Below, in pieces: positions 6,236-51,114 of a DNA stretch of 64,000 bases. The stretch lies in contig DASXVV010000011.1 of NCBI GenBank assembly GCA_036504035.1, positions 9,611-73,610 on the forward strand, given 5' to 3'. The DNA is from Candidatus Deferrimicrobiaceae bacterium. GTDB taxonomy: Bacteria > Desulfobacterota > Deferrimicrobia > Deferrimicrobiales > Deferrimicrobiaceae. Within the stretch, counting starts at the first letter, position 1. Each line of letters begins with the position of its first letter. The notes under the pieces are model-generated. The model was not told the DNA's origin. It ran no database searches and saw nothing but the letters and a program-made list of their open reading frames with translations. The position numbers and the translations under genes are program-made.

Positions 6236-6266
6236 GCGTACCCTTTCGTGTCCGGCGCGCCGCGCC

Positions 6267-8009
6267 TCAATCGGCGCCCGCGACCGGACGACGCTTCAAG
6301 ACGGGGGAGACGGGGATCTTTTCCTTGGTTCCGGGGTTGCGGAAGTCGCGCAGCTTCGGTTTGCGGCCGCCCCAGTAGTTACCCGACAGATCGAGACCGC
6401 CCTTGGCCCAGTCGCCGATCTTGGCGTCGACCTCCAGGTTCTCGATCCGGCACCCGTTGATTTTACCACCCCCGGCGCCGTCCCTGTAGAAGAGCCCGGT
6501 CCGGTTCCCGGAGATGACCGAGGCCGTGATGCGCGGACCGCCATCCCAAAAGCGAAGACCGATCTCGTTGCCGACGATGCTGCAGCGGTCGAAACGGGCC
6601 CCGGTGCCCTTGAGCCGCGCCCCGCCGCCGTTGCCCCGGAGCGTCGTCCGCGCGATCGTCACGTCGCCGTCGTGGATGTGCAGCCCCCAGAGCGCCCCCT
6701 CGAACAGCGCGTATCGGATCACGACGTCGGCCTCCTTCATGAAGACCTCGTTCCAGGGGCGAGCGGGGTCTAACCGGGCGAAGCGGACGGGCCTTCCGCG
6801 CTCGCCCTCGACGCGAAGCTTGCCGAACACCTTGAGGCCGCCGTCGGGAACACCCGCCTCCCCGTGCTCGTCGCCCGAGAGCAGCACCACGGTGCCGGGG
6901 CGGATCGTCAACGTCGCCCCCTTCTCGACCGTGACCGGCTCGGTGATCTTTACGGTGCCTTCCCAGCTCTCTTCGGCGGAGATCGAGCGCCCGAAGGCCG
7001 CGGCGTCGCCGGGACACGCGAAGGACAGGACGGCCGGAATGAGGAGCACGGCCGCCCCGAGTGGGGCGGCGCGCCTGGCCTTGCGAAACAGGTCGATCGA
7101 TAGGGAAACGCCGAACAGGAGCGCCCCGGCCCAGAACCATGGAGCGCCCGGCTCGCGCGTCATCTGCAGCCCGATGACCCGGCTGCCCGTCTCGTCGGGC
7201 CTGGCGACGGTCAGGCAGAAGGTGAAGCCGCCGAACGCGCCCGGGTGGTTGATCCGGATCTCTTCGACCTCGGGAGCGATTCCCGGCCGCACGAATCGGA
7301 CGCGAGCGACGTATTCGGCGATTTCGGGATCGGCCCACGCGACGGGAACGACCGTGAATCCGCCGGGCGCCGACGCTCCCGACGACCCGGTCCGAATCCC
7401 CGTTACGCGGAGGTCGCCGAGCGAGGCGTCGAACGTCAGCGCCTTCCGCGAGATATCGAAGCGGCGCGGAACGACCGTCAGGCCGGTGCCCGGGACGTCG
7501 AACGGAACGCCTTCCCGGACGTGAAACGGCCCGTGCTTGCCTCCGGATGCATCCCGGATGCCGATCTGGAGGTCCATGGGATGGTATCTCTCGGTGTATC
7601 CGAGCGCCTCGACCGTGAATGGAAAGGATTTGTCGACATTGTCGCGCCAGTCGAAGTACGCCGCGGAGCGCTCCCCGACCCGATAAAGCTGCGTCCCGAC
7701 GAATGCGAAGCGGGCATCGACGACGAGGCCCGCCATCAGCATGACCAGGCCGGCATGCAGCCCCAGGAAGACGGCGGCCCGGAAGCCCCGGAACTGACCG
7801 GTTCGCAGACGGGTGAAGGCGCAACAGGCGACGTTGAGTGCGAGGAGCAGCGCGGGTGCGAGAAACAGGGGGGAACGATAAAGGTTGATCGAGCCCTGGC
7901 TCGCGAACGAGGTGGCGCCGGTGTAAAGGAATGCCCCGACCGCGCCAAGCGCCGCCAGAACCAGGCACAGGGCGATGGTCAGCCGCGTCGACGAGAGGAA
8001 CCGGAGCAA
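6267..8009 (-). CDS. Fusion protein: ResB/CcsB-like N-terminal membrane domain plus C-terminal parallel beta-helix domain
   Basis: 580-aa ORF. The N-terminus (MLRFLSSTRLTIALCLVLAALGAVGAFLY...INLYRSPLFLAPALLLALNVACCAFTRL) resembles ResB family N-termini. The C-terminal 250 aa carry beta-helix repeats with a GNYWGG motif like the other beta-helix paralogs. Confidence 0.5.
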   Translation of the reverse strand: MLRFLSSTRLTIALCLVLAALGAVGAFLYTGATSFASQGSINLYRSPLFLAPALLLALNVACCAFTRLRTGQFRGFRAAVFLGLHAGLVMLMAGLVVDARFAFVGTQLYRVGERSAAYFDWRDNVDKSFPFTVEALGYTERYHPMDLQIGIRDASGGKHGPFHVREGVPFDVPGTGLTVVPRRFDISRKALTFDASLGDLRVTGIRTGSSGASAPGGFTVVPVAWADPEIAEYVARVRFVRPGIAPEVEEIRINHPGAFGGFTFCLTVARPDETGSRVIGLQMTREPGAPWFWAGALLFGVSLSIDLFRKARRAAPLGAAVLLIPAVLSFACPGDAAAFGRSISAEESWEGTVKITEPVTVEKGATLTIRPGTVVLLSGDEHGEAGVPDGGLKVFGKLRVEGERGRPVRFARLDPARPWNEVFMKEADVVIRYALFEGALWGLHIHDGDVTIARTTLRGNGGGARLKGTGARFDRCSIVGNEIGLRFWDGGPRITASVISGNRTGLFYRDGAGGGKINGCRIENLEVDAKIGDWAKGGLDLSGNYWGGRKPKLRDFRNPGTKEKIPVSPVLKRRPVAGAD

Positions 8010-36922: not shown

Positions 36923-38047
36923 ATGATTCCACGAGCCCTGTCGCTCGACCGGTTGGTCCGCCCCGGGAAAGTGCTGGTCATCTACGGCCCCCGGCAGGCC
37001 GGGAAAACCACGCTTCTGAATGCGTGGCTGGATTCCTGCGGCCTGCGCTATCGCCTGGAAACCGGCGACGACATCCGCCTCCGCCACCTGCTGGGCTCCT
37101 CCGACATGGAACAGATCCTCGGCTTCGCGGAGGGATACGACCTGCTGGCGATCGACGAGGCGCAGCAAGTGCCCGAGATCGGCACGGGGCTGAAGATCCT
37201 CGTGGATCACAACCCGGGCCTGAGAATCATCGCCAACGGGTCGTCCTCCTTCGATCTGGCCCACGCGGTCGGCGAACCGCTGACGGGCCGCAAGAAAACC
37301 GTCACGCTTTTTCCGATCTGCCAGATAGAGCTGCTCAAGCAGCACAACGCCCACGACCTGCGGGAACGGCTCGCGGAGTTTCTCGTTTTCGGCAGCTATC
37401 CCGAAGTGGTGACGACCACCGGCAAAAAAGGGAAAGCGGCCCTGCTTGACGAACTTGCCGGTTCTTACCTGCTCAAGGATGTGCTCGCGCTGGAACGAAT
37501 CCGCGAATCGCGGTCGCTGGTCGACCTGCTCAAGCTGGTCGCGTTCCAGGTCGGAAGCGAAGTCTCGCTCAGCGAATTGGCAACCCAGGTTCGCTTGGAC
37601 GTCAAGACCGTCGGCCGGTACCTCGACATCCTCGAGAAGGCGTTCGTCATCGTGCGTGTCGGGGGTTTCAGCCGGAACCTGCGGACCGAGATCGTCTCGA
37701 AGGCCAAATATTATTTTCTCGACAACGGCATTCGCAACGCCGTCATCGGCCAATACAATCCGCTCGATTCACGCAACGACATCGGCGCTCTGTGGGAAAA
37801 CTTCATCGTCTCCGAACGCATGAAAAAAAGGGCCTATGCCGGAATCCATGGCACCTTCCATTTCTGGCGAACGTATGGCGGACAAGAGGTCGATTACGTG
37901 GAGGAACGCGACGGCGGCCTTTTCGGTTACGAGTGCAAGTGGTCTTCGAACAAGCGCATCAAGGCGCCTTCCGCCTGGGCGGACGCCTATCCGGATGCGA
38001 CCTTCGAGACGATCACGCCCATAAATTACCTGTCGTTCGTGGGCTAA
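36923..38047 (+). CDS. AAA+ ATPase with C-terminal DUF4143 (AAA_14/DUF4143 family), copy A
   Basis: Walker A GPRQAGKTTLL. Overall collinear with 51272-52438 and 52549-53718. An AT-rich promoter-like region (36811-36905) lies upstream. Confidence 0.65.
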   Translation: MIPRALSLDRLVRPGKVLVIYGPRQAGKTTLLNAWLDSCGLRYRLETGDDIRLRHLLGSSDMEQILGFAEGYDLLAIDEAQQVPEIGTGLKILVDHNPGLRIIANGSSSFDLAHAVGEPLTGRKKTVTLFPICQIELLKQHNAHDLRERLAEFLVFGSYPEVVTTTGKKGKAALLDELAGSYLLKDVLALERIRESRSLVDLLKLVAFQVGSEVSLSELATQVRLDVKTVGRYLDILEKAFVIVRVGGFSRNLRTEIVSKAKYYFLDNGIRNAVIGQYNPLDSRNDIGALWENFIVSERMKKRAYAGIHGTFHFWRTYGGQEVDYVEERDGGLFGYECKWSSNKRIKAPSAWADAYPDATFETITPINYLSFVG

Positions 38048-38086
38048 CCCGCGGCACAAATCTCCTATGGCAGATATTCCGTCAAG

Positions 38087-38216
38087 GCGTGAAACAAAAT
38101 ACATGGCACGGAGAATCTCCCGGAACGGTCCTGACCGGCACCCGCCAGGTCGGGAAAAGCACGCTCCTTCGGCGCGAGTTTCCCGAATTGACCTACCGGT
38201 CGCTCCATTCGGGGAA
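38087..38216 (+). pseudogene. 5' remnant of a fourth AAA/DUF4143 ATPase gene, truncated where it meets the HepT/MntA module
   Basis: VKQNTWHGESPGTVLTGTRQVGKSTLLRREFPELTYRSL matches the N-terminal P-loop region of the DUF4143 paralogs, but the frame then runs into antisense of the HepT gene. Confidence 0.45.
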
Positions 38217-38636
38217 TCAGTCCGGTAAGTGTTTCAGGATGGCCCCTCGAAATTCCCCGAAATCGCCGAGATGCTTTCTCAGGACCAGCACCACGATCTC
38301 TGCATCCACACTTTCGTACTGGTGGACGACGATGTTCCGGAATTTCGCCATCTTTTCCATCACAGAAGAAAGGTCCGGGGAAATCACCCCGTTTTCGGAA
38401 AGGACCCGGAAGGTATCTGCATAACCGGTCGGAACGCGCATGCATTCGTCGGAAATGACGTGATTGGCTATATCGGCGCAGGTTTCAATCATCATCTGCA
38501 ACGTTCTTTCGACGATGCGCTGAACTTTCCAGTCGGCTCGGTATGCGCCGACCTCGATCGTCGAATATTCGCCCATTTCGACGATGTAGCGATCTAGTTC
38601 GGCAACTTTTCTGAGAATCAGATATTTATCGACCAA
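38217..38636 (-). CDS. hepT: HepT-like (DUF86/HEPN) RNase toxin
   Basis: 139-aa ORF with the Rx4HxY motif (RNIVVHQY). It overlaps the upstream MntA-like gene by 11 nt. Confidence 0.65.
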   Translation of the reverse strand: MVDKYLILRKVAELDRYIVEMGEYSTIEVGAYRADWKVQRIVERTLQMMIETCADIANHVISDECMRVPTGYADTFRVLSENGVISPDLSSVMEKMAKFRNIVVHQYESVDAEIVVLVLRKHLGDFGEFRGAILKHLPD

Positions 38637-39018
38637 GCCCGTACCTCAGCGATAGGAGTGTTTCTTCCTTTTTCCGAAAATCGAAAAACTGCCGCAACAT
38701 GGACGATTCGAATCGATGCCGGATGAACGGATGCTTGTCCACAAGCAACCTCCGGTTTTGAAGTACCCTTCCCGTGATGCTGACCGAGGATACGTTGAGG
38801 ACGACGAGATCGATCTCGGAAGTCCCGAGAACATCGCTGATCTTCGAGAACAGGTCCAGTTTGGTCTGTGCGATGGATTCGGTATCGGACAGATAAACCG
38901 CAAGATCGATGTCGGAAACCGGCTTGACCGGTCCGGTCGCACACCCTCCGAACAGATAGGCAAAAATGACCAGCGGATCACCCTGGAACATCCCGCAAAG
39001 CGCGGGCAGGCGATCCAT
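38626..39018 (-). CDS. mntA: MntA-like minimal nucleotidyltransferase antitoxin
   Basis: Start at MDRLPALCGMF. The GSx9-10DxD nucleotidyltransferase motif is FGGCATGPVKPVSDIDLAV. The longer 158-aa ORF has an artefactual N-terminus. Confidence 0.6.
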   Translation of the reverse strand: MDRLPALCGMFQGDPLVIFAYLFGGCATGPVKPVSDIDLAVYLSDTESIAQTKLDLFSKISDVLGTSEIDLVVLNVSSVSITGRVLQNRRLLVDKHPFIRHRFESSMLRQFFDFRKKEETLLSLRYGLGR

Positions 39019-39118
39019 GATTCCCACTGGCAATTTATCGAATTTGTACAATGCCCCCCCGGAACAGGAAGTCCTGACGGGCAGTTTACACCCAATCCAC
39101 AACGGAAGGAGTGCCTCC

Positions 39119-39163
39119 AGGCAACAACCTCGCGGGCTCCGGCTGGACCGCCCTGCTGGGGCT
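39119..39163 (+). repeat. Degenerate copy 1 of the wzx 5'-end segment
   Basis: aacctcgcgggctccggctggaccgccctgctggggctg versus aacctcgcgggatcgggctggaccgccctgctcggtctg in wzx (about 90% over 39 bp). In frame it encodes NNLAGSGWTALLGL. Confidence 0.5.
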
Positions 39164-39376
39164 GATCGGGGTCACCGCCAACCTTCCCGTAGGGTCCAGG
39201 CCCCATCCCTCGCAATAATCCACCCATGGGAGCACTTTCCGAAGACAGGAGCCATGTCATGCTGCCGAAAGACATCATTCTGGCGTCTCTGGAAGAGTTC
39301 GAGTTTTATCGGAAGGAAGCCGGCTCGGCATTTGGTGGTATACTACGTTGTAGCCACAAACGTGCCGGAGGTTTAC

Positions 39377-39706
39377 ATGTCCGAATCCGTAATCCGATCC
39401 CGCATCGACTCTGCCTTAAAGCTGGAAGCCCAATCGCTCCTCTCCAAATTCGGGCTGTCCATGAGCGACGCCATCCGGCTTTTCCTGCACCAGGTCGTCA
39501 TGGAAAAAGGGCTTCCCTTTGCCGTCCGGCTTCCCGAGGAAGCGGCAAAAGAGCACGACCGCTGGTTCCGGCTGCAGGTCGAGGAGGCCTTGAAGAAAGC
39601 CGACAACCCGAAAGCAGACTTCGCACCACACGATTCCGTCCATGCCCGTTGGAACCGGAAGCGAAAGGAATTGCAATCCCGCGTCGGCAAGGCCGACAAG
39701 GGATGA
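39377..39706 (+). CDS. RelB/DinJ-family antitoxin
   Basis: MSESVIRSRIDSALKLEAQSLLSKFGLSMSDAIRLFLHQVV is a DinJ/RelB-type ribbon-helix-helix N-terminus. The stop overlaps the toxin start (ATGA). Confidence 0.6.
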   Translation: MSESVIRSRIDSALKLEAQSLLSKFGLSMSDAIRLFLHQVVMEKGLPFAVRLPEEAAKEHDRWFRLQVEEALKKADNPKADFAPHDSVHARWNRKRKELQSRVGKADKG

Positions 39707-39954
39707 TCGTCGAGTGGTTGTCCGACGCACTCCAGGATTTCGATTCGATCGTGGAATATATCGCTGCCGACAATCCGGCAGCAGCTATCGAACAAGGTGA
39801 TGCCATCGAACAACAGGTCGGGCATCTGGGTTCCTATCCCCGAAGCGGACGCGTCGGCCGAACACCTTATCTTGCCGTCTATCGCATCCGGAAGGATCGG
39901 GTCCAGATCCTGCGGATTCTCCACGGGGCACAACTGCGGCCAAAAACATTTTGA
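39703..39954 (+). CDS. RelE/ParE-family toxin
   Basis: 83-aa ORF (MIVEWLSDALQDFDSIVEYIAADNPAAA...RIRKDRVQILRILHGAQ), the ParE-like size and pattern. Confidence 0.6.
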   Translation: MIVEWLSDALQDFDSIVEYIAADNPAAAIEQGDAIEQQVGHLGSYPRSGRVGRTPYLAVYRIRKDRVQILRILHGAQLRPKTF

Positions 39955-39967
39955 CCCAGCCGAACCC

Positions 39968-40102
39968 GTCCACCCCATGAGCCGGGTCAAGAAGAACTTC
40001 ATCGCCAACCTCGCGGGATCGGGCTGGACCGCCCTGCTCGGGCCGGCCTGCACGCCGCTCTACTTTGACGATTATTTGCCGGATTTCCGGGTCTGTTCGT
40101 AA
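39968..40102 (+). pseudogene. Duplicated 5' fragment of wzx (direct-repeat copy 2 at 39968-40063, then divergent sequence)
   Basis: 39971-40063 is about 98% identical to 40456-40548. It encodes MSRVKKNFIANLAGSGWTALLGPACTPLY, identical to the Wzx N-terminus, then diverges and stops. Confidence 0.6.
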
Positions 40103-40114
40103 TAAACTATCCCC

Positions 40115-40387
40115 ATGGGGCGAATCGAAGACATTCTCGGAGACGCCGTTGCACGTATCCGTAGCGTTTGCGACCCGCAAAAGATCATCCTTTTCGGTTC
40201 CCAGTCCGCAGGGGTACCAACGGGAGACAGCGATATCGACCTGATGGTCATATTGCCGACCGACGAGTTGCCACACCGGCGTTCCCTCCCGATTCGCAAA
40301 GCCTTGCGCGGGATATCCCTACCCAAGGACATCATTGTCAAGACCCCTGCCGCCCACTTCGGCACGATTCTCTATGAACGACCTTAA
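40115..40387 (+). CDS. Orphan minimal nucleotidyltransferase (MntA-like) with no adjacent HEPN partner
   Basis: FGSQSAGVPTGDSDIDLMV is a GSx9DxD motif. 90-aa ORF between wzx repeat copies 2 and 3. Confidence 0.55.
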   Translation: MGRIEDILGDAVARIRSVCDPQKIILFGSQSAGVPTGDSDIDLMVILPTDELPHRRSLPIRKALRGISLPKDIIVKTPAAHFGTILYERP

Positions 40388-40446
40388 AAGGGATTCGATT
40401 CGACGCTGGGTTCCGGCAATAACTCCTGCAATTCCTTGATGTCTAC

Positions 40447-40548: not shown

Positions 40549-41964
40549 ATCAAGTTCCTGGGGATGGAAGCGTACGGGCTGATCGGTTTCTACCTCACGA
40601 TGAACGGGGTGATCCAGATCCTCGACCTGGGCCTCAGCCCCACCATGACGCGGGAGATGGCGCGCTACTCCGCCCTGCCCGAGAAGGCCGGCGAAGCGCG
40701 CGACTTCGTCCGAACGCTCGAGATCGGCTACTGGGCGATCGGCCTCCTGATCGGCGCGGTGGTATATTTCGCCGCCCCCCTCATCGCCACCCACTGGATC
40801 AAGCCGGGGCGGCTGACGCCCGACGAGGTCCTCCACGCCATCCGGATCATGGGCGCCCTCGCGGCGCTGCAATGGCCCTTCAGCTTCTACCAGGGGGGGT
40901 TGATCGGGCTGCAACGGCAGGTGCTCCTGAACGGCCTCTCAATCGCGATGGCAACGCTGTCCAGCGTCGGCGCCGTGCTCATCCTGTGGCGCGTCTCGCC
41001 GACCGTTTCCGCCTTCTTCACCTGGCAGATCGCGGTGTGGTGCCTCCAGGTTGTCCTGATCACCGTGGCCTTGTGGCGCTGCCTGCCCGCAACGGAACGG
41101 CCAGCACGCATCACGCCCGCCCTTGTCCGCAACGTCTGGCAGTTCGCAGCCGGAATGAGCGGTATCACTCTGTCAGCGCTCATCTTGACGCAAATCGACA
41201 AAGTCATCCTGAGCAAGCTGCTCGACCTGACGACGTTTGGCTACTACATGCTTGCGAGCGTGATCACGACCGGAATTTCCTCGGTCCTGATCACGCCGAT
41301 GTTCAACACCGTCTTCCCCCGCTTCTCGGCGCTCGTGGCCGAGAAGGACGAAAAAGGTCTGACCGACATGTACCACGGCTCGACTCAGGTCATGGCCGTC
41401 TTGATTCTGCCCGTTGCGGCGGTTCTTTGCCTCTTTTCGCACGAGGTCATGATGCTTTGGACGCAGAACACGGAAGTGGCACGCAATACGGCCCCCATCG
41501 TCACCATCCTGGTCATCGGTACTGCTCTAAATGGACTAATGAATCTTCCCTATGCGCTCCAACTCGCACACGGATGGACCAAGATAGGCCTGCAGATCAA
41601 CACGGTCTTTATTTTCACGCTGGTTCCGACTATCCTTTTCCTGGCAACCAGATACGGGGCAGTGGGTGCGGCAGCGGTCTGGGTCTTATTGAATGGCACA
41701 TATATGGCCGTCGGCGTCCCATTGACTCATCGCCGACTCCTCCAAGGTGAGGCAGGAAGGTGGTTTTTACGCGATGTCGGCCTTCCCTTGACCGGTTCCT
41801 TGCTGGTGGTCCTGATCGGGAAGCAAGTACTCGATATCCCCCCGGCGCCGATCCCTGCAATCCTTTCCCTGGGGGCTCTTCTTCTTCTCGCCTTCACCGT
41901 CGCGGCCTTGGCAACTCCGCAATTGCGATATCTGTTGATGAAGCCAAAAGTCCCTGGGGCATAG
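40462..41964 (+). CDS. wzx: Wzx-type oligosaccharide flippase (MOP superfamily)
   Basis: 500-aa protein with about 12 TM helices and a typical Wzx N-terminus (KNFIANLAGSGWTALLGLACTPLYIKFLG). Confidence 0.65.
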   Translation: MSRVKKNFIANLAGSGWTALLGLACTPLYIKFLGMEAYGLIGFYLTMNGVIQILDLGLSPTMTREMARYSALPEKAGEARDFVRTLEIGYWAIGLLIGAVVYFAAPLIATHWIKPGRLTPDEVLHAIRIMGALAALQWPFSFYQGGLIGLQRQVLLNGLSIAMATLSSVGAVLILWRVSPTVSAFFTWQIAVWCLQVVLITVALWRCLPATERPARITPALVRNVWQFAAGMSGITLSALILTQIDKVILSKLLDLTTFGYYMLASVITTGISSVLITPMFNTVFPRFSALVAEKDEKGLTDMYHGSTQVMAVLILPVAAVLCLFSHEVMMLWTQNTEVARNTAPIVTILVIGTALNGLMNLPYALQLAHGWTKIGLQINTVFIFTLVPTILFLATRYGAVGAAAVWVLLNGTYMAVGVPLTHRRLLQGEAGRWFLRDVGLPLTGSLLVVLIGKQVLDIPPAPIPAILSLGALLLLAFTVAALATPQLRYLLMKPKVPGA

Positions 41965-41985
41965 ACACACTTGTGGAGGATTTGA

Positions 41986-42933
41986 TTGAAATCGGTTTAT
42001 GCTTCCATTCCCGAAAAAGCCGCGTCTCGGCCGTTGTGGAAGCGATTGTTGTTTTCCCTGTACGGATGTGCGGCGTCACTGCCCTGCTGGCTCGCGGCGC
42101 ATGCGTTGGGCACCCCCGGACTTGCCTTCCATCGCGATTACTCCATGCTGGGGCTCTCGCTCCTGTTCAACCGGAAGGCGCCCCTCGGCTTCACGGAACT
42201 TCATACGTCGATCTTCGCCCCGGTCATCCTGACGCGCTATTTCGAGTTCGAGTTTGCCTGGCAGTCGCTGGCGGGACATCCAATGGCGAATTATCTCGAT
42301 GTCTCATCCCCCTACGCCTTCCCCCTGTTGCTGACCTGTCGAACGCCTAATTTGCGGACGGAGCTGATCAATCCAAATTCCAGCGATCTTCCTATCACCA
42401 CCCGATTCGTCGATGCGGCCGGAATCCGGAATCGTTGCGGATTACACGATTGCCTCGTCGAGGACGCCCCCTTCCCGTCTGCCTCGTTCGACGCCATCAC
42501 GAGCCTTTCGGTTGTGGAGCACATCCCCGAAGTGCGTCCCGCCATCGAGAAGATGTGGGCGCTCCTTAAGCCGGGCGGTAAACTCGTGCTGACGGTTCCG
42601 TGCGCGAGGGAGGCGTACTCCCTTCACGTCGACCAGAACGAATACGGTCTGCTCGAAACCGACGAACGAGGCTATGTCTTCCTGGAACACATCTTCGACG
42701 ACGAATTATTGAAGCGCGAAATATTTGCCGTCACGGGGGAGCCGGTCCGCAGCGCCATCTATGGCGAAAAGCGCGACGGGTTCCTTCGCCAGGTGTTGCT
42801 GGACCGCTGGTCCGGACAGCCATGGCGCTACTGGCGAGAGCCGATCATGATGGGCAAGGAATTGGGATTCTACGAGCGCATCGGCGACTTGCCTGGTGAA
42901 GGAGTCATCGGGCTGGAATTTATCAAGCGATGA
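41986..42933 (+). CDS. Methyltransferase-domain protein (class I SAM-MTase-like)
   Basis: SFDAITSLSVVEHIPEV...LLKPGGKLVLTVP. A TTG start follows an in-frame TGA. Confidence 0.4.
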   Translation: MKSVYASIPEKAASRPLWKRLLFSLYGCAASLPCWLAAHALGTPGLAFHRDYSMLGLSLLFNRKAPLGFTELHTSIFAPVILTRYFEFEFAWQSLAGHPMANYLDVSSPYAFPLLLTCRTPNLRTELINPNSSDLPITTRFVDAAGIRNRCGLHDCLVEDAPFPSASFDAITSLSVVEHIPEVRPAIEKMWALLKPGGKLVLTVPCAREAYSLHVDQNEYGLLETDERGYVFLEHIFDDELLKREIFAVTGEPVRSAIYGEKRDGFLRQVLLDRWSGQPWRYWREPIMMGKELGFYERIGDLPGEGVIGLEFIKR

Positions 42934-44384
42934 AGATTCTTTTCCTGGCCCACCGGCTGCCCTGGCCCACCAACACGGGCGGCAAGCAGCTTCTCTACAA
43001 CCAGATCAGGCAGCTTTCCGCCTCGCATGACGTCAGCTTGATCTGCTTCAGGCATCCGGATTCCAGCGGGGACGGCGGACTGTCGGACATGTGCCGGATG
43101 ATGAAGGTGCTCGAGATTCCGACCACGAGAAAGGTAGCCCTCAACGCGTTTGCCGGACTGGTCGGAGACGTTCCCTTGATCGTCTCGCTCTATGCCTCGC
43201 GATCCTCCGCAAACATAATCAGACGGCATCTCGAAGAAGACCGGTACGACGTCGTGATATCCCAGATCGAAATGGCCCAATTCATACCGGAATCGTACTC
43301 GGGGCCGAAGATCCTGCTCATGGAAGACCCCGAGCCGTTGAAATTCACTCGAGTAGACAAACGCGGCTGGACGATTCGACAGCGCCTGTGGCGGGGATTC
43401 GAAACCGGAAGGCTTAGCCGATACGAACGGCGTCAATCGCCCCGTTTCGACCGGGTGACGCTGCTTTCGGAAGAGGACGCCCGCGATAACCAGTCTTTCC
43501 TGCCGGATGCGCGGTTGGCCTGCGTCCCCTATGGCACGGACCCGGACTGGTTCAGCCCGTCGGATGCGGTCAAGCGGGTCGAGGGGATGATCGTGATCAG
43601 CGGCAACATGTACCACCCCCATAACGCTGCGGCGGCGCTCCACTTCGCGCGCGACATCTATCCGACGGTGAAGAAGGAAGTCCCCGACGCAACGCTGTGG
43701 ATCGTCGGAGCGAACCCGATCCCCGAGATTCTTAGCTTGGGGAAAACAGAGGGAATCACGGTGACCGGCGCCGTTCCCGAAATCCGGGATTACCTCAGGA
43801 TGGCGCGGGTGAGCATCTGCCCGATTGCACTGAAGATCGGCGTCCAGACCAAGGTGCTGGAGGCCATGGCATGCGGCACGCCGGTCGTGACCACGTCAGC
43901 CGGCAACAGCGGCATCGGCGCCCCTTCCGGGGAAGGGCTATACGTAGCGGACTCCGACGAGGATTTTTCGCGATGGGTCGTGGAACTTTTGAGAGGCAAA
44001 GGATGGGATGACATGTCGGCGCGTGCGCGACGGTTCGTCCTCGATCATTTTTCGTGGGAAATAAGCGCGAACAAAATGGAAAAACTGATCGCCGATATCA
44101 TGAAAGGCAAACGCATGAACATTATCCCCCCCCCCCCGGCGGTATTCCGTAACGAATATCCGCTCGTCAACCTGCTGGTCGTAAATATATACGTCCACGA
44201 AAACCGCGTTACCGAAAACAACCAGAACATCGGTCAACTCGGCGCCAAACTCTACGTCGTTCCGAAACCAAACGTCCTTCTCGGCCGCTTTGTGTCGTGG
44301 ACATCCCAGTCCATGCTCTTGAAATCCGCAGTCAAGACCAATGAAGACTTCCGCGCGTTTCTCGGACGGCCGGCAACCGTATGA
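42930..44384 (+). CDS. GT4 glycosyltransferase (GT-B fold); the 3' end is suspect after a poly-C tract
   Basis: MKILFLAHRLPWPTNTGGKQ... EAMACGTPVVTT. After ...IMKGKRMN, a C12 run (44126-44137) is followed by an 80-aa low-GC tail that does not look like a GT4 C-terminus. Confidence 0.6.
   Translation: MKILFLAHRLPWPTNTGGKQLLYNQIRQLSASHDVSLICFRHPDSSGDGGLSDMCRMMKVLEIPTTRKVALNAFAGLVGDVPLIVSLYASRSSANIIRRHLEEDRYDVVISQIEMAQFIPESYSGPKILLMEDPEPLKFTRVDKRGWTIRQRLWRGFETGRLSRYERRQSPRFDRVTLLSEEDARDNQSFLPDARLACVPYGTDPDWFSPSDAVKRVEGMIVISGNMYHPHNAAAALHFARDIYPTVKKEVPDATLWIVGANPIPEILSLGKTEGITVTGAVPEIRDYLRMARVSICPIALKIGVQTKVLEAMACGTPVVTTSAGNSGIGAPSGEGLYVADSDEDFSRWVVELLRGKGWDDMSARARRFVLDHFSWEISANKMEKLIADIMKGKRMNIIPPPPAVFRNEYPLVNLLVVNIYVHENRVTENNQNIGQLGAKLYVVPKPNVLLGRFVSWTSQSMLLKSAVKTNEDFRAFLGRPATV
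44126..44137 (+). repeat. Homopolymeric C12 tract inside the 3' end of the GT4 gene
   Basis: Twelve consecutive C. With 11 C the ORF ends about 20 codons later; with 13 C it ends after 9 codons (PPPPGGIP stop). Confidence 0.8.
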
Positions 44385-45394
44385 ATCCTCGTACACCGCC
44401 CATGCTGTCCATCTGCATCTCCACCTTCAACCGGGCCGCCTTCATCGCGGAGACGCTGGAATGCATCCTTTCCCAATCCCCCGACAACGTCGAAATATTG
44501 ATCGTTGATGGTGCGTCGACCGACAACACCGAATCGGTGATTCGCCCCTTCCTGAGCCGACATCCGCAAATCCGGTATCAGCGGCAGGAAAAGAACCAGG
44601 GAATTGACCGCGACTTCGATGCTGCGGTCGTATTGGCTCGCGGAAAATACTGTTGGCTGTTTTCGGATGACGATTTGCTAAAACCCGGCACGGTCGACCT
44701 TGTATTGCAAAAACTTTCCTCGGGCACCGACCTGCTCATCCTGAACGCCGAGATAAGAAACGCCGACTTGCGCGAAACGATCCGGGAGCGCAGCTTGCGG
44801 ATGACCAGTGACCGCTTCTACTCCCCTGAAGAAACAGATACGCTGATGGCTGAAACTGCAGACTATCTTTCGTTCATTGGCTGCGTGATCGTCCGGAGAA
44901 GTCTCTGGCTTGAACGGGAGCGGGAACGCTACTATGGGTCGTTTTTCATCCACGTTGGCGTCATCTTTCAGGAGCGTCTGGCAAATGGTGCCCTGGTCAT
45001 CGCCGCCCCTATGATCATTATTCGGTACGGAAACGCAACCTGGACATCCCGTGCTTTCGAAATCCTCCACTTCAAATGGCCCGAACTCATCTGGTCTTTC
45101 TCGGGGATATCCGAGCAAGCCAAGTCCGCCGTGTGCCCAAAATATCCGTGGAGAAGCGTACGCCGCCTCATGTTCGACCGTGCCAAAGGGATGTACTCCA
45201 TAGCGGAATATCGGAAACTTATTGCGAGCCGTTGCAACTCGATTTCAGAACGATTGCTCTTCTCCGTCATCTCGCTCTTGCCGGGAATGTTGCTGAACCT
45301 CGTGCTATTTGGCTATTTCCGAATGCGCTACACAGACCCAAGATTTGCCGTCTTCGAACTTAAAAATAGCCGTTTTTACTTCCGTAAAAGTTAA
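44381..45394 (+). CDS. GT2 glycosyltransferase (GT-A fold)
   Basis: LSICISTFNRAAFIAETLECILSQ...ILIVDGASTDNT...FSDDDD-like motifs. The ATG overlaps the GT4 stop. Confidence 0.65.
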   Translation: MNPRTPPMLSICISTFNRAAFIAETLECILSQSPDNVEILIVDGASTDNTESVIRPFLSRHPQIRYQRQEKNQGIDRDFDAAVVLARGKYCWLFSDDDLLKPGTVDLVLQKLSSGTDLLILNAEIRNADLRETIRERSLRMTSDRFYSPEETDTLMAETADYLSFIGCVIVRRSLWLERERERYYGSFFIHVGVIFQERLANGALVIAAPMIIIRYGNATWTSRAFEILHFKWPELIWSFSGISEQAKSAVCPKYPWRSVRRLMFDRAKGMYSIAEYRKLIASRCNSISERLLFSVISLLPGMLLNLVLFGYFRMRYTDPRFAVFELKNSRFYFRKS

Positions 45395-45445
45395 CTGCAG
45401 GCATTTCGCAGAAAACCAAGCGCGTTCCATTCAATTTCCGCCCCG

Positions 45446-45670
45446 TCCGAGGAAAAGTTTTACATCGCGGACACGCCCGATGATTTTGCCCGGCGGGTGG
45501 TCGATCTGCCGCGGGGCGACGGTTGGGATGACATGTCGGCGCGTGCGCGACGGTTCGTCCTCGATCATTTTTCGTGGGATAAAAGTGTCGAAAAGCTGGA
45601 GATGCTGATGACCGAGATCATGGAAGAGCACGCCACGGGAGCCCCCCTGGGGCGCCAAGCGCGGGGCTGA
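45446..45670 (+). pseudogene. 3' remnant of a GT4 glycosyltransferase gene
   Basis: ...FYIADTPDDFARRVVDLPRGDGWDDMSARARRFVLDHFSWDKSVEKLEMLMTEIMEE... is collinear with the C-terminus of the intact GT4 (..LYVADSDEDFSRWVVELLRGKGWDDMSARARRFVLDHFSWEISANKMEKLIADIMKGK). It contains the 56-bp exact repeat 45524-45579 (= 44004-44059). It lies in frame directly after the GT2 stop but has no start codon of its own. Confidence 0.55.
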
Positions 45671-45675
45671 CCTCT

Positions 45676-47049
45676 TTATGCAGCCGGAGCCAGCATCTTC
45701 TTCAGCCGGTTGATCCTCCCGCTGATGTCTAGCCGATACATGAATTCCTTGCTGATGATCCCGTGGTTGATGAGCTTGATGACGATGTTGTAGTAGATCC
45801 AGTCCTTCGGGGACGCTCCGAGCACTTTGTAGATGCACTTGTTGACGAAGCGGTAATCGACGCCCTTGATCTTGGCCCCGCTGTCGAGGTTGCGCCGGTA
45901 CCCTTCGCTTGTCGTGATCAGGTTGAGATCGTGCTCCATGCAGTAATCGTAGAGCTCGCTGCCCGGGGTCGGCGTGAAGATCGCGGGGCTGGGGATCGCC
46001 GGCTTGATCTCGCGGACCATCTTGACGGTCATTTCCATTTCGGCCTTCGTCTCGGTCGGAAGACCGAACATCAGGTTCGCGAAGATGTTGATCCCGAGTG
46101 ACCTGCAGATTTTTCCCGCCTCGATATTCTGGGCGACGGTCGTTTCTTTCTTGATGAAATCGAGAACCCGGTCGCTGCCGCTCTCGAAGCCGATCAGCAC
46201 CCAGAGCAACCCCACCGACTTGAGCTTCTCGATCAGGTCGGGACGCTTGCAGACGATGTCGGACCGCGTCTGGCAGACGAACGTCTGGGTGAGCCCCCGC
46301 TGCTTCTTCTTCTCGCAGAACTCCTCGACCCAGCCGTAATACTGCGTGAAGCAGTCGTCGTGGATCATGAACGACTTCATCCCGTAGTCGCGGGCGAGCA
46401 TCTCGAGCTCGTCGAGGATGTTGTCGACGCTCCGCCGCCGGACACGGTCGCCGAACACGTTCCGTTCGGCGGGCTGGCAGAACGTGCACTTGTAGAGGCA
46501 TCCCCGGGATGCCGTGATCGAGTAGTACGGCTTCTCGAGATAGCGCCAGGGCGTCTCGCCTTCGGGCGAGAGGCTCCGGTCGACGAACGGGATCGCGTCG
46601 AGGTTTTCGGGCACAGCGCCGCGGACGATCCGCGGCGCGTTCTTGAGATCGGCGAGGATGCCCGGCAGGGTGACCTCGGCTTCGTGGGTGAAGATGATGT
46701 CGAATTCGGGGACGGCGGCGGTTTCCTCGGTCATCAGTGTGGGGTGGGGACCGCCCACCATGACCGGCGCCTGGGGGCGCGTTTTCTTGAGGATGGCGCC
46801 CATTCGCTTCGCCGCATCGAAATCGACGGTCGCGATCGAGATCATGGCGACATCGTAGGGAACCGCTTCGACGGTCGACTCGAACTCGGCCCAGTCCTTC
46901 AACTTGCGGCAATCGATGTAATGGACCGAATGGCCCTCGCGCTTCGAGATGGCGCTCAGGATGCCGATGCCGTGATTGAACCAGTTGGCGCCACGGTCAT
47001 AGGAAGCGAAACCTTCGACGAGCCCGGGATAGATCAGGAGAATATTCAT
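45676..47049 (-). CDS. B12-binding-domain radical SAM protein (class B radical SAM, putative sugar methyltransferase/modifier)
   Basis: Start at MNILLIYPGL. An N-terminal B12-binding-like domain and CxxxCxxC (CLYKCTFC). The upstream part of the 489-aa ORF is artefact. Confidence 0.6.
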   Translation of the reverse strand: MNILLIYPGLVEGFASYDRGANWFNHGIGILSAISKREGHSVHYIDCRKLKDWAEFESTVEAVPYDVAMISIATVDFDAAKRMGAILKKTRPQAPVMVGGPHPTLMTEETAAVPEFDIIFTHEAEVTLPGILADLKNAPRIVRGAVPENLDAIPFVDRSLSPEGETPWRYLEKPYYSITASRGCLYKCTFCQPAERNVFGDRVRRRSVDNILDELEMLARDYGMKSFMIHDDCFTQYYGWVEEFCEKKKQRGLTQTFVCQTRSDIVCKRPDLIEKLKSVGLLWVLIGFESGSDRVLDFIKKETTVAQNIEAGKICRSLGINIFANLMFGLPTETKAEMEMTVKMVREIKPAIPSPAIFTPTPGSELYDYCMEHDLNLITTSEGYRRNLDSGAKIKGVDYRFVNKCIYKVLGASPKDWIYYNIVIKLINHGIISKEFMYRLDISGRINRLKKMLAPAA

Positions 47050-47092
47050 CCGTGAATTGTACCATCCGGCATCCCCGCCGGCCAGATTCGCG

Positions 47093-48061
47093 CTAGCATG
47101 ACCGCAGCAAATACCGCACTGCCCCCGCCACCATTCCGCCGACACCTCCTTGCGCCCGCCAGGCCGCCGAGCGCGTGCATGCGTATTCCTCGCCGGTCAT
47201 GCCGTTCAAACATGCCTTTTTCCGGACGAGCAGCAGCATCAGGGTGGTCCAGGCGAAACGGGAATGCGACGCACTGTCGAGGATCCCCTTGAGCCGGTCC
47301 GCGTGCTTCATGAACAGGAGGCACAGCTCCGGGATCACCCGCCCCTCCGCTGCGTTGACCTGTGACGTTTGCCCTTCATGGACCCGCCACTGGCTCAAGA
47401 ACCTGGGAACGAACACGGCATCGGAATCGAGCAGCAGCCGGATCCAGCCGTCGATGTCGATCAGTTGCCGGAAGCGGACGTCGAATCCGCCGATCCGCCC
47501 GAGCGCGCTTTTCCGGATCAGCGTGTTGGTGGGTTCGCCGACGACGTTTTCGAGGCCCGGGAACAGCGTGTTCAGCACCTTGCTGCCGGTGTTCAGCCCC
47601 GGGGCCAGTTCCTTCTGCCGCGCATGGACGCCCAGCAGGAAGCGAAGGTTCGCGACGTTGGCCTCGCCGGGGAGAAGGTCGTGCAGCAGGAAATCCCGGG
47701 CCGAAAAGACCAGCCCCGCCTCCGGATGCGCCATGGCCGCGGCAACCAGGGTCGAGACGCAATCCGTGTAACAGAGGTCGTCGCAATGCACGAACTTGAT
47801 GTATTCGCCTTCGGCAAGCTCGACGCACCGGTTCCAGTTGCCGCCGATCCCGAGGTTGTCGGGGTTCCGGTAGAGCCGGACGCCGGGCGCTCCCGCATAT
47901 TTCTGCAGCCGGTCCCAGGAATCGTCCTTCGAAGCGTCGTCGACCACGACGATTTCCCGGTTCGGATAATCCTGGTACAGGACGGTGGCCATCGCCTGGT
48001 CGATATGCGCCGACGCGTTGTAGACCGGGATGCAGATGGAGACCTTGGGACCTAGGTTCAT
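47093..48061 (-). CDS. GT2 glycosyltransferase
   Basis: Start at MNLGPKVSICIPVYNASAHIDQ, then VVVDDASKDDS...CDDL. Confidence 0.6.
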   Translation of the reverse strand: MNLGPKVSICIPVYNASAHIDQAMATVLYQDYPNREIVVVDDASKDDSWDRLQKYAGAPGVRLYRNPDNLGIGGNWNRCVELAEGEYIKFVHCDDLCYTDCVSTLVAAAMAHPEAGLVFSARDFLLHDLLPGEANVANLRFLLGVHARQKELAPGLNTGSKVLNTLFPGLENVVGEPTNTLIRKSALGRIGGFDVRFRQLIDIDGWIRLLLDSDAVFVPRFLSQWRVHEGQTSQVNAAEGRVIPELCLLFMKHADRLKGILDSASHSRFAWTTLMLLLVRKKACLNGMTGEEYACTRSAAWRAQGGVGGMVAGAVRYLLRSC

Positions 48062-48143
48062 GGGTGGATATCCCTCCGCAAGCCATGGTAGCAGAACGGA
48101 AACGAACTCGGCACTCTTGGGGACGGAATCCCCGCGCCGAAGA

Positions 48144-48815
48144 TCAAATGACCAGCGAAGCCCCCGTTTTTTCCGATGGAGGGAGCGGTTTGTCCCATGC
48201 GGCCCTGACGGAAGCTTGCAACGATTGCCTGCACCGATCCGGCAGAGAAACCAGTTCGGGTTCATTGAACCAGCAGAGGATGCGAAGACATTCGGCGGGC
48301 GAGAAGGATTTCCCGAAAAGGGTGATCGCGTCGGAAAGACCTTGGAGGAGGCTCCCGCCATTTCCCAGGATTTCCGCGACATCGAGATAATCCTTCGGCT
48401 CGACACGATCGAATAGCGCTTTCAGCTTGGTGGCCAGCAGATCCCTGATCGAAGCGGCCAGGATCACCCCGTCACTTGAACGCTCCGGTACCCCCACTCT
48501 CCCGATTTTCAACCCTCCGAAGAAAGAGACCTTCACGCCAGCCCGCGACTTCGGTGGAACGGCGAGAACGACATAGGTCCCAGGTTCGTCCTGGAGAACC
48601 GTTGCATCCCCGATCCACGGGAGGGATTCAAGAAGAGTCCGGTCGAGAAGGCGGTCGCTGAAAAAGTCGAAATCAATCGATTGCCTGTGCCCGAACCGCA
48701 ATGCCAGCGCCGTTCCTCCGTAGAGGCAATACCCCATCCCCGACAGAGGCGCGAGCAGCGGCCACAGTTTTTTCTGGGCAGCGGGAAGGATGTCAGGCCG
48801 GGTCTGGAAGACCAT
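48144..48815 (-). CDS. AbiEii/AbiGii-family nucleotidyltransferase toxin (type IV TA)
   Basis: Start at MVFQTRPDILPAAQKKLWPLL. CLYGGTALALRFGHRQSIDFDFFS matches the GG[TS]A...R.S.D.D motif of AbiEii/DUF1814 proteins. It overlaps the upstream HTH gene by 23 nt. Confidence 0.55.
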   Translation of the reverse strand: MVFQTRPDILPAAQKKLWPLLAPLSGMGYCLYGGTALALRFGHRQSIDFDFFSDRLLDRTLLESLPWIGDATVLQDEPGTYVVLAVPPKSRAGVKVSFFGGLKIGRVGVPERSSDGVILAASIRDLLATKLKALFDRVEPKDYLDVAEILGNGGSLLQGLSDAITLFGKSFSPAECLRILCWFNEPELVSLPDRCRQSLQASVRAAWDKPLPPSEKTGASLVI

Positions 48816-49314
48816 CGCGCCTCCTCGTCGGCATCGGGGGAATCTCCACAGGTGGATCGAAACCCAGAACGGTGTGCCAGAGCGCCCATGATCTCGGGCG
48901 GAACCAACCGGGGCGCGCCTGCCTGAGGACGTCGATGAACGCTCTTTTCCCGAGCACCCCGGCGAGTTCCTGGATGTCTTCGAGTGTCCCGACATCCATT
49001 ACCTGTGCGATCACCCGAAGCGGGGTCTTGACTGATTCGACTGGCGGCTGCCACCAGATGTAACGCCCGGCCATCCGGCGAAGGATTCCCCCCACTCGGC
49101 TGGCGTTCCGTGGCGACCGGACGGGAGCAAGGTCATATCCGACTATGCCCAGAATCTTGTCGAGTTTTGCGAACCCCAGTTCGTTTTTGGTCCCTTTTTC
49201 GAGACTGTTCAGCGTCGCCCGGGAGACGCCGGCAAGTTCCGCAAGACGCGCCTGCGTGAGGTGCTCCTTCAGGCGTTCCTCCCGAACGATTTTCCCGATC
49301 GCGTAAAGTTCCAC
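48793..49314 (-). CDS. XRE-family HTH protein, putative antitoxin/regulator partner of the AbiEii-like toxin
   Basis: The N-terminal helix-turn-helix (LTQARLAELAGVSRATLNSLEKG) is XRE-type. An additional C-terminal domain follows. Operonic with the AbiEii-like gene. Confidence 0.5.
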   Translation of the reverse strand: MELYAIGKIVREERLKEHLTQARLAELAGVSRATLNSLEKGTKNELGFAKLDKILGIVGYDLAPVRSPRNASRVGGILRRMAGRYIWWQPPVESVKTPLRVIAQVMDVGTLEDIQELAGVLGKRAFIDVLRQARPGWFRPRSWALWHTVLGFDPPVEIPPMPTRRRDGLPDPA

Positions 49315-49519
49315 GAACGCCTCTTTCCCGACCAGACCTTGATGTCAATTATATTATACATTCGCGTGCCGGTGACCGGCAACGTCAACTTGTTACGGCG
49401 GCGTGCTGATCAGACGCACCAGTGCGAGAACATGCGATAACCCTGCCCCTTTTTTGAATCGCTGGCATCCCGCCCCAATTAGTCTTATAATTACCCTTAT
49501 GTCGTTTAAGGGGTCATGT

Positions 49520-49867
49520 ATGACTCATTTGCTGCTAGGAAGTCAAGCACTTCTGCCGGATGTCTCTCGGGTGGTCACCCTTCTCGGCGAACGGATCCGG
49601 ATTGCCCGGAAGCGGCGTGCAATGACCATCCAGGAGCTTGCATCGCGAATGTTCGTTACCCGAAAAACGGTTTCCCGGCTCGAAAAAGGTGATCCCGGCG
49701 TCTCTCTTGGCGTATTCGCGTCGGCGCTCTGGGTCCTGGGCCTCGACAAATCCCTTCTGGAGGTCGCCGTTCCCGAACGAGACGAAGTCGGGCTTTTCCG
49801 CGAGCGGCAGCGCCTCCCGCTCCGCATCCGGCCTTCCGCTAACCCGGACGACGATCCGGATTTTTGA
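49520..49867 (+). CDS. hipB: HipB-like XRE-family HTH antitoxin
   Basis: MTHLLLGSQALLPDVSRVVTLLGERIRIARKRRAMTIQELASRMFVTRKTVSRLEKG. Shine-Dalgarno AAGGGG. A TATAAT at 49486-49491 lies upstream. The stop overlaps the hipA start (ATGA). Confidence 0.6.
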   Translation: MTHLLLGSQALLPDVSRVVTLLGERIRIARKRRAMTIQELASRMFVTRKTVSRLEKGDPGVSLGVFASALWVLGLDKSLLEVAVPERDEVGLFRERQRLPLRIRPSANPDDDPDF

Positions 49868-51114
49868 CGATGCCCGTGCGTCGCCTAACGGTTTTCATCT
49901 ACTTGCCGGGGGAAACGACAGCGGTCCCGGCCGGAATTTTCACCCATGACGATGACGCCGGCATCGGCGCCTTCGCTTATGGGCGGCGATATCTCGATCG
50001 CGGAAATGCGCTTCCGGTCGACCCGATCGCACTGCCGCTTGGCTTGCGGCCGCGTGAGATTACAACCAACGGCGGGTTGTACGGCGCCTTTCGCGATGCG
50101 TCGCCCGATTACTGGGGGCGGATTGTCATCGCCGCCGAAGCCGGGACTGCCCCCGAGGCGCTATCGGAAATCGACTTTCTGGTCGCCGCAAACGCCACCC
50201 GGGTCGGCAATATCGATTTTCGCCTGTCTTCGGAAGATCCGGAACCGGCCTTGGGTCCGCCTCATTTCGATCAACTCGCAAACATCATCGACGTTGCCGG
50301 AAAAATCGAAGCGCACGAACCGGTCGAGACGCACCTGCTCCAAATTCTCCGCCAAGGAACCAGCATGGGGGGGGCCCGGCCGAAATGCGTCGTCGAATGG
50401 AATGACGCCCTGTGGATCGCGAAATTTCCCGCGAAAGACGACTCGCTCGACATACCCCGAATCGAATACGCCACGATGACGCTCGCCCGCCGATGCGGGA
50501 TCCAGATCCCCGACACACACCTCATGACGATCGGAAACAGGAACGTGTTCCTGATCCGGCGTTTCGACCGGGAAAAAGGCGATGGAGGGTGGCTGCGGAC
50601 CGGCTTCCTGAGCGCACTTTCGCTGATGCAGTGGGACGAGCGCGATCGGCAGAAGTGGGACTACACCGCAATCGCCGACACGATGCGCCGACACACACCG
50701 CCCTCGGATCTCCGTGAGTTGTATCGACGGATGATTTTCAATATTTTCGTCAGGAACACGGACGATCATCCCCGCAATCACGCCTTTCTCGTCGAGAAGG
50801 ACGGTTTGTTGCGGCTCTCTCCGGCCTACGACATCGTTCCCTCGCTGACGCAACCCGGCGTGGGGACGCAATTCCGGCTCGCCATGTCGGTCGGAGCACA
50901 TGGGCGGGAAGCCACGCCCGAAAACGCGCTGAGCCGCGCCGCGCGATTCGGCTTATCGGGTGAGGAGGCCGGCGGGGTGATCGCGTCGATGGCCGAAACC
51001 GTCTCGGGTTGGCAAGATCATTTTCGGGGATGCGGGATACCGAAAAAGGAATGCGACATCCTGCGGGCATCGTTTCGTGGAACGTCAAGCCGTACGTCCC
51101 GAGGCAAGGCCTGA
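49864..51114 (+). CDS. hipA: HipA-family serine/threonine kinase toxin
   Basis: 416-aa protein with a HipA N-terminal coupling region and a kinase-like core (...GGARPKCVVEW...DDHPRNHAFL...). Confidence 0.65.
   Translation: MTMPVRRLTVFIYLPGETTAVPAGIFTHDDDAGIGAFAYGRRYLDRGNALPVDPIALPLGLRPREITTNGGLYGAFRDASPDYWGRIVIAAEAGTAPEALSEIDFLVAANATRVGNIDFRLSSEDPEPALGPPHFDQLANIIDVAGKIEAHEPVETHLLQILRQGTSMGGARPKCVVEWNDALWIAKFPAKDDSLDIPRIEYATMTLARRCGIQIPDTHLMTIGNRNVFLIRRFDREKGDGGWLRTGFLSALSLMQWDERDRQKWDYTAIADTMRRHTPPSDLRELYRRMIFNIFVRNTDDHPRNHAFLVEKDGLLRLSPAYDIVPSLTQPGVGTQFRLAMSVGAHGREATPENALSRAARFGLSGEEAGGVIASMAETVSGWQDHFRGCGIPKKECDILRASFRGTSSRTSRGKA

Follow-up and report, generated by a model that had tools for sequence, protein, structure and literature searches.

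A single run of 12 C (C12) lies in the 3' part of a GT4 glycosyltransferase gene in a 64,000-nt stretch of Candidatus Deferrimicrobiaceae DNA, which is called the window below. The most solid finding is a 1,520-bp cassette insertion, which has created a hybrid GT4 gene, a displaced GT4 3' remnant and the seam at which this run lies. The tract is tentatively regarded as a candidate slippage-sensitive gate, acting on the downstream GT2 glycosyltransferase gene and on a C-terminal extension of GT4, and not as an on/off switch of GT4 itself. Coordinates of all features are collected in Table 1.

The inserted cassette and its tract

The segment becomes visible when the locus is compared with that of the nearest GT4 relative, P0001 (96% identity, 406 aa, ending in NKSAEKLEKLMTEIMEEHARGTSPGRQARG), from the Logan assembly SRR30728738 (locus L002). 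In L002, a convergent radical-SAM/B12 gene comes directly after GT4. Positions 1-2813 of L002 correspond to 41298-44109 of the window (98.0% identity) and positions 2698-6605 to 45515-49420 (98.7%). Two exact direct repeats of 56 nt, the core of the recombination, delimit the extra DNA. To the left of the core, L002 follows the left copy (98% identity, against 66% for the right one), and to its right it follows the right copy (90%, against 71%, falling to 38%, for the left one). Resident DNA, 98% identical to L002, makes up the GT4 gene as far as 44003; the GT4 3' end from 44060 onwards is foreign. The guanine-plus-cytosine (GC) content of the unique part of the insertion is 53.3%, against 59.6% and 61.1% in the resident flanks.

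The same segment is missing from seven related loci with six distinct GT4 orthologues, at GT4 identities of 96% (L002), 76% (L012), 74% (L013/L014), 71% (L015 and L016) and 64% (L017/L018). In all these relatives, the gene immediately after GT4 is a convergent one, and no plus-strand GT2, tail or tract was found at the GT4 locus of L012, L013/L014, L015, L016 and L017/L018. As the segment is lacking in all relatives, it is the derived state. An empty site in close relatives, direct repeats and a compositional contrast, the marks of a recombinational cassette insertion, are thus all present, a context that was overlooked when the tract was first described.

From left to right, the locus consists of the resident 5' part of GT4, the core, the foreign GT4 3' end (EISANKMEKLIADIMKGKRMNII), C12, an 81-codon tail, GT2, a 30-nt spacer, a foreign GT4 fragment (SAPSEEKFYIADTPDDFARRVVDLPRGD), the second core and the resident GT4 3' remnant. 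The displaced remnant accordingly begins with a foreign part (45438-45523), followed by the core and by the resident GT4 C-terminus (ending in DKSVEKLEMLMTEIMEEHATGAPLGRQARG). In the annotation of the Joint Genome Institute (JGI), a 57-aa hypothetical open reading frame (ORF; 45497-45670) is placed on it. Beyond the core, the remnant is only 90% identical to L002, while the remainder of the right flank reaches 98.7%, a difference suggestive of relaxed constraint on the remnant. No sampled homologue is more than 65% identical to the foreign GT4 fragment. A single crossover of the resident GT4 with a circular molecule bearing one core would fit the whole arrangement.

The tract is exactly 12 C long and is the only homopolymer above 8 nt in the window; the runners-up are a G8 at 50367 and several C7 runs. 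Runs of at least 12 C or G are expected 0.044 times per window under a first-order Markov model and 0.07-0.11 times with independent, identically distributed bases. Locally, C12 is unusual, and by chance a few such runs are expected in a genome of several Mb. Two assemblies contain it. The JGI metagenome contig 3300035523 Ga0376481_000072 (290 kb) includes the window, and the Logan contig L010 (SRR11794808_187266, 1,524 nt) is 100% identical to 44030-45553, C12 included. Both assemblers place the 12 C in a contig interior; the run is thus not specific to one assembler, even though the two assemblies may share the same or related reads. The observation of a run unusual even for this DNA, from which the original prediction started, is confirmed. 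The identical GT2 protein was found on these two contigs only. The junction in the present protein reads IMKGKRMNII-PPPP-AVFRNEY. A search of Rfam for an RNA element at the tract gave no match, and the fold z-score is -0.4.

Registers of the tract and probable coupling to GT2

The part of the GT4 protein encoded upstream of the tract is complete. Pfam Glyco_trans_1_4 (PF13692) matches it with an E-value of 2.5e-23 (83.3 bits, gathering cut-off 27), and aa 3-388 align with positions 1-395 of the 397 in the NCBIfam profile TIGR03087 (stp1). The TIGR03087 score of 224.5 bits is under the curated cut-off of 316.65, which by score leaves the protein outside this family of PEP-CTERM/XrtA-system glycosyltransferases; it is best described as an stp1-like GT4. 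Its 120 best homologues measure 266-432 aa and cover at most 84% of the 484-aa query. In the AlphaFold model (40 homologues), the predicted local distance difference test (pLDDT) is above 90 up to aa 396 and the last helix spans aa 376-396; from residue 399 onwards the value is below 50, which in the tail says nothing on folding, as there is no alignment depth. A domain above threshold and a two-Rossmann fold place the enzyme among the GT4 members of GT-B fold. The tract starts directly after this complete enzyme.

Because the fold ends before the tract, the enzyme is kept intact in all three registers, and none of them truncates GT4. The registers that are not a multiple of three (3n) end 4-15 codons past the tract. 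The stretch that follows the conserved FSW anchor has a median length of 21 residues in homologues and never exceeds 49; that of the window protein is 31 residues long with 13 C, 41 with 11 C and 108 with 12 C, and the two products of a ±1 change are of family-typical length. The end of the 13 C register (PPPPGGIP and stop) aligns ungapped with the C-terminus of P0010 (TPTTGGGIASGRA), and the DNA of the two shares CCGGCGG. As one match among roughly 30 comparisons, this gives a weak hint that the 13 C-type frame may be the ancestral GT4 ending. The original prediction had the conserved GT4 C-terminus end at the tract, and the profile alignment, homologue lengths and structural model agree with it; the early stop that it foresaw for 11 or 13 C is found as well, at the two TAA codons of Table 1. 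GT4 itself is not switched on or off, as its fold is complete in every register.

In the 12 C register, the ribosome would read on into a tail of 81 codons. The GC content of this tail is 53.5%, distributed over the codon positions as 0.59/0.33/0.68, a pattern also seen in the neighbouring genes. Its codon-usage log-likelihood, trained on the other long ORFs of the window, is 21.7-22.8 bits over 243 nt, and in-frame stretches of this length have means of 23.2 bits in GT4, 24.7 in the preceding methyltransferase (MT) gene and 13.9 in GT2. The other two plus-strand frames score -43 and -64. A score as high as that of the tail was reached in any of the six frames by 0.04% of Markov-simulated sequences, and the three-base periodicity is pronounced (chi-square p = 4.7e-5). 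The tail in the 12 C register thus has a native-like coding signature. It had been called low in GC and implausible; the first stands, and the second is contradicted by codon score and periodicity. An ORF on the opposite strand, open across the tail, was also considered as the coding frame and set aside as improbable. Its codon score is only mildly positive (8.8 vs 22.8 bits), its only family match is DUF6037 at E = 0.04, and it has neither homologues nor any likeness to the C-termini of the relatives' convergent genes; most probably it is open simply because it lies antisense to a coding frame, as is common.

Searches of Pfam and NCBIfam with the tail were negative. A word-indexed search of 5.8 billion proteins and tblastn/blastn against the window and all fetched loci gave no match either. 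An exhaustive HMMER scan of 1.8 billion representatives returned three weak matches only (E = 4e-5 to 2e-4), to Big_2 repeat proteins and a junk repeat; these were judged spurious, being repeat-inflated and spread over multiple stretches. The tail is best regarded as an orphan coding stretch, which may have been left over from the 3' end of a donor gene not yet sampled or may be an extension specific to the lineage.

The GT2 gene behind the tail has hundreds of homologues at 50-55% identity, annotated "abequosyltransferase". The nearest relative (L011) is 79% identical at the protein level, and its DNA is homologous throughout GT2 and for ~35 nt beyond the stop. Upstream of GT2, the L011 DNA is AT-rich and unrelated to the window; hence, the tail does not belong to that GT2 module. 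The TGA of the tail overlaps the GT2 ATG as ATGA (44381-44384), and the MT stop overlaps the GT4 ATG in the same manner. JGI called the GT2 start at 44402. The duplex energy of the Shine-Dalgarno site is -9.3 kcal/mol for MT and -4.3 kcal/mol for GT4; for GT2 it is -5.7 kcal/mol at ATG 44381 and +0.4 kcal/mol at the alternative ATG 44402, so that MT has the only strong site of the three genes. The strongest sites of the locus (RelB, MT, GT2b and AbiEii) reach -9 to -12 kcal/mol, and the overlapping or abutting ParE and HipA genes have similarly weak ones (-3.8 and -3.3 kcal/mol). No promoter-like or terminator-like site was found between the alternative stops and GT2. The simplest reading of these features is a coupled translation chain of MT, GT4 and GT2. 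Given its poor ribosome-binding site, GT2 is probably translated by termination-reinitiation, like GT4 after MT; the 12 C register would then couple GT2 translation and ±1 C would probably uncouple it. The earlier claim that slippage would alter this coupling finds support in the weak Shine-Dalgarno site and the ATGA overlaps, from which we infer the dependence itself.

Taken together, the following course of events is proposed. A foreign segment would have recombined into the resident GT4 through the identical 56-nt core, bringing the C tract along with the foreign GT4 3' end, the 81-codon orphan stretch, GT2 and the short foreign GT4 fragment. With 3n C, ribosomes would leave GT4, cross the orphan stretch and terminate on the ATGA at the GT2 start, and GT2 would then be translated by termination-reinitiation. 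After a slip of ±1, GT4 would stop at 44152 or 44184 as a protein of normal size (407 or 417 aa), and the ribosomes would be released 197-229 nt upstream of the GT2 start, resulting in less GT2. The same slip would also strip GT4 of its 86-residue C-terminal extension.

Table 1. Features of the GT4-GT2 locus in the window, and long G runs at related loci (L012, L013, L016)
Feature	Position	Strand	Basis or remark
GT4 ORF, present register	42930-44384	+	484 aa, deposited as HEY3490306.1 from a metagenome-assembled genome of Candidatus Deferrimicrobiaceae
Complete GT4 part (GT-B fold, stp1-like), aa 1-398	42930-44125	+	Pfam, TIGR03087, homologues, AlphaFold
C12 homopolymer	44126-44137	+	now encodes last base of Ile399, then Pro-Pro-Pro-Pro
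Register 12 C (also 9, 15): GT4 of 484 aa	stop TGA 44382-44384	+	frame runs 81 more codons
Register 13 C (10 C): GT4 of 407 (406) aa	stop TAA 44150-44152	+	C-terminus PPPPGGIP
Register 11 C (14 C): GT4 of 417 (418) aa	stop TAA 44182-44184	+	
Orphan tail, read only in 3n register (9, 12, 15 C)	44138-44384	+	open frame, codon usage, periodicity
Acquired GT2 (abequosyltransferase-like)	44381-45394	+	Pfam PF00535, 91 bits vs cut-off 23.3
Inserted segment, 1,520 bp, one repeat copy included	44060-45579	+	comparison with L002 and other relatives
Left 56-nt exact direct repeat (recombination core), inside GT4	44004-44059	+	
Right 56-nt exact direct repeat	45524-45579	+	
Displaced GT4 3' remnant	45438-45670	+	TIGR03087 positions 335-395; alignment to L002 GT4 end
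Methyltransferase (MT)	41986-42933	+	Pfam Methyltransf_11/23; Shine-Dalgarno GGAGGA
Antisense ORF, 152 aa, open across tail, tract (as GGGG) and GT4 3' end	43938-44396	-	codon score 8.8 bits
G10 tract in GT4 gene (48-1217) of L013	L013 930-939		in frame, conserved GGG of PILAGGGVIVKILDAMA
G9 tract, 48 nt into GT2 ORF (2817-3704) of L016	L016 2865-2873		±1 gives truncation to 21-38 aa
G15 after GGGGG-TTTT-GGGGG, 20 nt from the end of an NCBI metagenome-assembled genome contig	L012 20-34		translated in called gene

Possible slippage and the competing explanations

Contingency loci are recognised by G/C tracts of at least ~7-9 nt, and C12 is of sufficient length. In Campylobacter jejuni, tract rates rise from 1e-4 (G7) up to 4e-3 (G11) per division, and for the G10-G12 tracts of wild-type meningococci the switching frequency is 1-3e-5; G/C runs of C12-like length are hypermutable wherever this has been measured (PMC3401435). 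The assumption that the tract is long enough to be slippage-prone was thus sound, 12 C being within the measured range. By its placement at the 3' end, a change of ±1 would alter only the C-terminal extension and the predicted coupling of GT2. As in known ORF fusions through a 3' tract, the 3n register joins GT4 to a second frame, here 81 codons of native-like usage, but this downstream frame is not a recognisable domain: it has no family, no homologue and a pLDDT below 50.

Several observations weigh against a gating role. The tract is 12 C long in the JGI and the Logan assembly alike, with no length variation seen, and the products predicted for 9, 10, 11, 13, 14 and 15 C were not found among ~15 billion proteins, a look-up of little power because the segment is carried by one strain in one sample. 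The tract is not conserved in relatives; their seven loci are without the whole segment and so offer no evolutionary sign of a tract being kept at this site. The tail is without a credible homologue in the HMMER scan, and the fusion may be an accident; a relic tail would be in frame with GT4 by chance in one of three cases. With CCC making up 41% of the Pro codons, a PPPP motif would be homopolymeric by chance in ~3-7% of cases. The dependence of GT2 on coupling is deduced from a few genes only. Furthermore, runs of at least 9 are not significantly enriched in the glycosyltransferase genes of the relatives, where three were found (one of them an artefact) vs 0.9 expected.

One of these three runs is a G10 in another GT4 gene (L013); a change of ±1 would truncate that protein at 312-319 of its 389 aa, and two members of its 90% cluster are also full-length. 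The G9 within a GT2 gene (L016) sits at the classical 5' position of phase variation. No variant products of these two G tracts were found. The G15 of L012 is almost certainly an Illumina two-colour poly-G artefact.

It is a real, if doubtful, possibility that the tract is incidental, a by-product of recombination or a CCC-rich linker of four prolines with no regulatory role, in which case the 484-aa fusion would be fixed and slips deleterious or neutral. The segment that bears the tract is a mosaic of recent acquisition and is missing in all relatives; both assemblies have the same tract length, and no variant product was found. The abundance of CCC, and the fact that a few runs of at least 12 are expected by chance per genome, point the same way. 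Moreover, phase variation is not described in the free-living, uncultured Candidatus Deferrimicrobiaceae (MBNT15). However, the remaining PPP/PPPP and GGG/GGGG motifs of the window use mixed codons, with runs of at most 7, and a 12-nt G/C run is physically hypermutable wherever measured (PMC3401435). The 12 C and 13 C registers both give "meaningful" outcomes, and the position of the tract would gate an ATGA-coupled gene with a weak Shine-Dalgarno site.

A sequencing or assembly error is improbable. The true tract would then have 13 (or 10) C, GT4 would be 407 aa long and end at 44152, and the tail would be an untranslated relic. Such an error would fit with the homologues being all at most 432 aa long, with the 108 residues past FSW against a family maximum of 49 and with the resemblance of the 13 C C-terminus to P0010; homopolymers are error-prone, and the contig end of L012 has a poly-G artefact. 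Exactly 12 C were nevertheless obtained by two different assemblers in contig interiors, and at 12 C the 81-codon frame is open, has optimal codon usage and closes in the ATGA shared with GT2, a register to be expected by chance in one case of three if the tail were a relic. Least credible, and indeed very improbable, is a classical contingency locus in which the tract switches GT4 itself on and off by truncation. A homopolymer in a glycosyltransferase ORF of a surface-polysaccharide cluster would suit such a locus, but the tract lies past the last GT-B helix, aa 1-398 are kept in all registers and the ±1 lengths are family-typical.

The slippage-sensitive gate on GT2 and on the GT4 extension is therefore retained as the tentative reading, and the interpretation given in the original prediction is partly supported. 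A more far-reaching version, which seems unlikely as it stands, is a two-state contingency switch. With 13 C, the cell would make the canonical GT4 and little GT2; with 12 C, ribosomes would cross the orphan coding relic to the ATGA, and the newly acquired GT2 would be on. The decoration of the exopolysaccharide (EPS) would vary stochastically through a "slippage-gated translational-coupling bridge" at a recombination seam, outside the host-adapted pathogens known for phase variation by simple sequence repeats (SSR).

Genomic surroundings and known systems

Candidatus Deferrimicrobiaceae is a family of the uncultured MBNT15 lineage (PMC9386147). The neighbours seen around GT4 are a Wzx-like flippase, a methyltransferase, a radical SAM/B12 enzyme, GT2 genes and toxin-antitoxin genes; the tract lies within a glycosyltransferase operon of surface-polysaccharide type, as had been supposed. 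The small EPS cluster (flippase, MT, GT4, GT2, radical SAM/B12, GT2) has a GC content of 59%, compared with 64% for the window. It is bracketed, at ~37400-40400 and 48100-51100, by genes of toxin-antitoxin and abortive-infection types (HepT/MNT, RelB/ParE, AbiEii with a helix-turn-helix (HTH) gene, and an HTH gene with HipA). Together with these genes, the cluster looks like a variable island. The G8 run of the window (50367-50374) is located within the HipA-like ORF, ~165 codons into the gene. The shared gene order with L002, 98% identical, stops at ~49420 of the window; in L002 (6605-10853), a DUF4143 fragment, a PKD-domain protein and an ISL3 transposase replace the HTH and HipA genes. The B12-binding radical SAM gene (45676-47145, minus strand) adjoins GT4 in most relatives (L002, L012, L013/L014 and L017/L018), and its product may be a sugar-modifying methyltransferase of the EPS pathway.

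If slippage is shown, homopolymer-driven variation of surface glycans would extend to an uncultured environmental anaerobe, and a tract at a seam, gating translational coupling, could make a freshly inserted glycosyltransferase cassette stochastically expressed. Without slippage, the locus is a clean case of EPS-locus mosaicism, with its hybrid GT4, displaced 3' remnant and 56-nt crossover repeats. For annotation, caution is advised, as the 484-aa "GT4" HEY3490306.1 bears an orphan read-through extension.

In O-antigen, capsule and EPS loci, cassettes come and go through homologous recombination. The present insertion resembles them as a lower-GC glycosyltransferase module between conserved genes, with homologous flanks and an empty site in relatives. 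It differs from them in that the crossover took place inside GT4, at the 56-nt core, and left a hybrid GT4 and a displaced 3' remnant.

In Haemophilus influenzae, the repeat tract of lex2A reportedly governs the downstream glycosyltransferase gene lex2B, as is said to have been described by Griffin et al. in 2003 and Deadman et al. in 2009; of this, our literature check bears out only the tetranucleotide SSR in lex2A and the role of lex2B as a glycosyltransferase. The likeness lies in a tract in an upstream ORF that governs a downstream glycosyltransferase, which here is a prediction. The lex2A tract, however, has tetranucleotide units and lies 5' in a small leader-like ORF, whereas the present one has single-nucleotide units and lies at the 3' end of a GT4 that is full-length and independently functional.

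Homopolymers control glycosyltransferases such as lgtA/C/D and siaD of Neisseria, fut of Helicobacter and wlaN/cgtA of C. jejuni. These genes, too, have a poly-G/C tract in a surface-glycan transferase gene, and their tracts generate population heterogeneity. In contrast to C12, they are 5' or central and truncate the product, while here the enzyme is intact in all registers. General statements on poly-G/C tracts in surface-glycan transferase genes are available (PMC2651432).

A further comparison is offered by cj0031 of C. jejuni, whose 3'-terminal G9 tract fuses it with cj0032 (PMC3401435). Here, the downstream frame is not a known domain but an orphan stretch of 81 codons without its own start, and the predicted effect is on the coupling to a third gene, GT2. 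The host is an uncultured environmental bacterium, in which switching is a candidate property, with one tract length (12 C) in both assemblies. What the two systems have in common is a 3'-end G/C homopolymer of hypermutable length, which decides between a stop and reading on into the downstream frame (PMC3401435).

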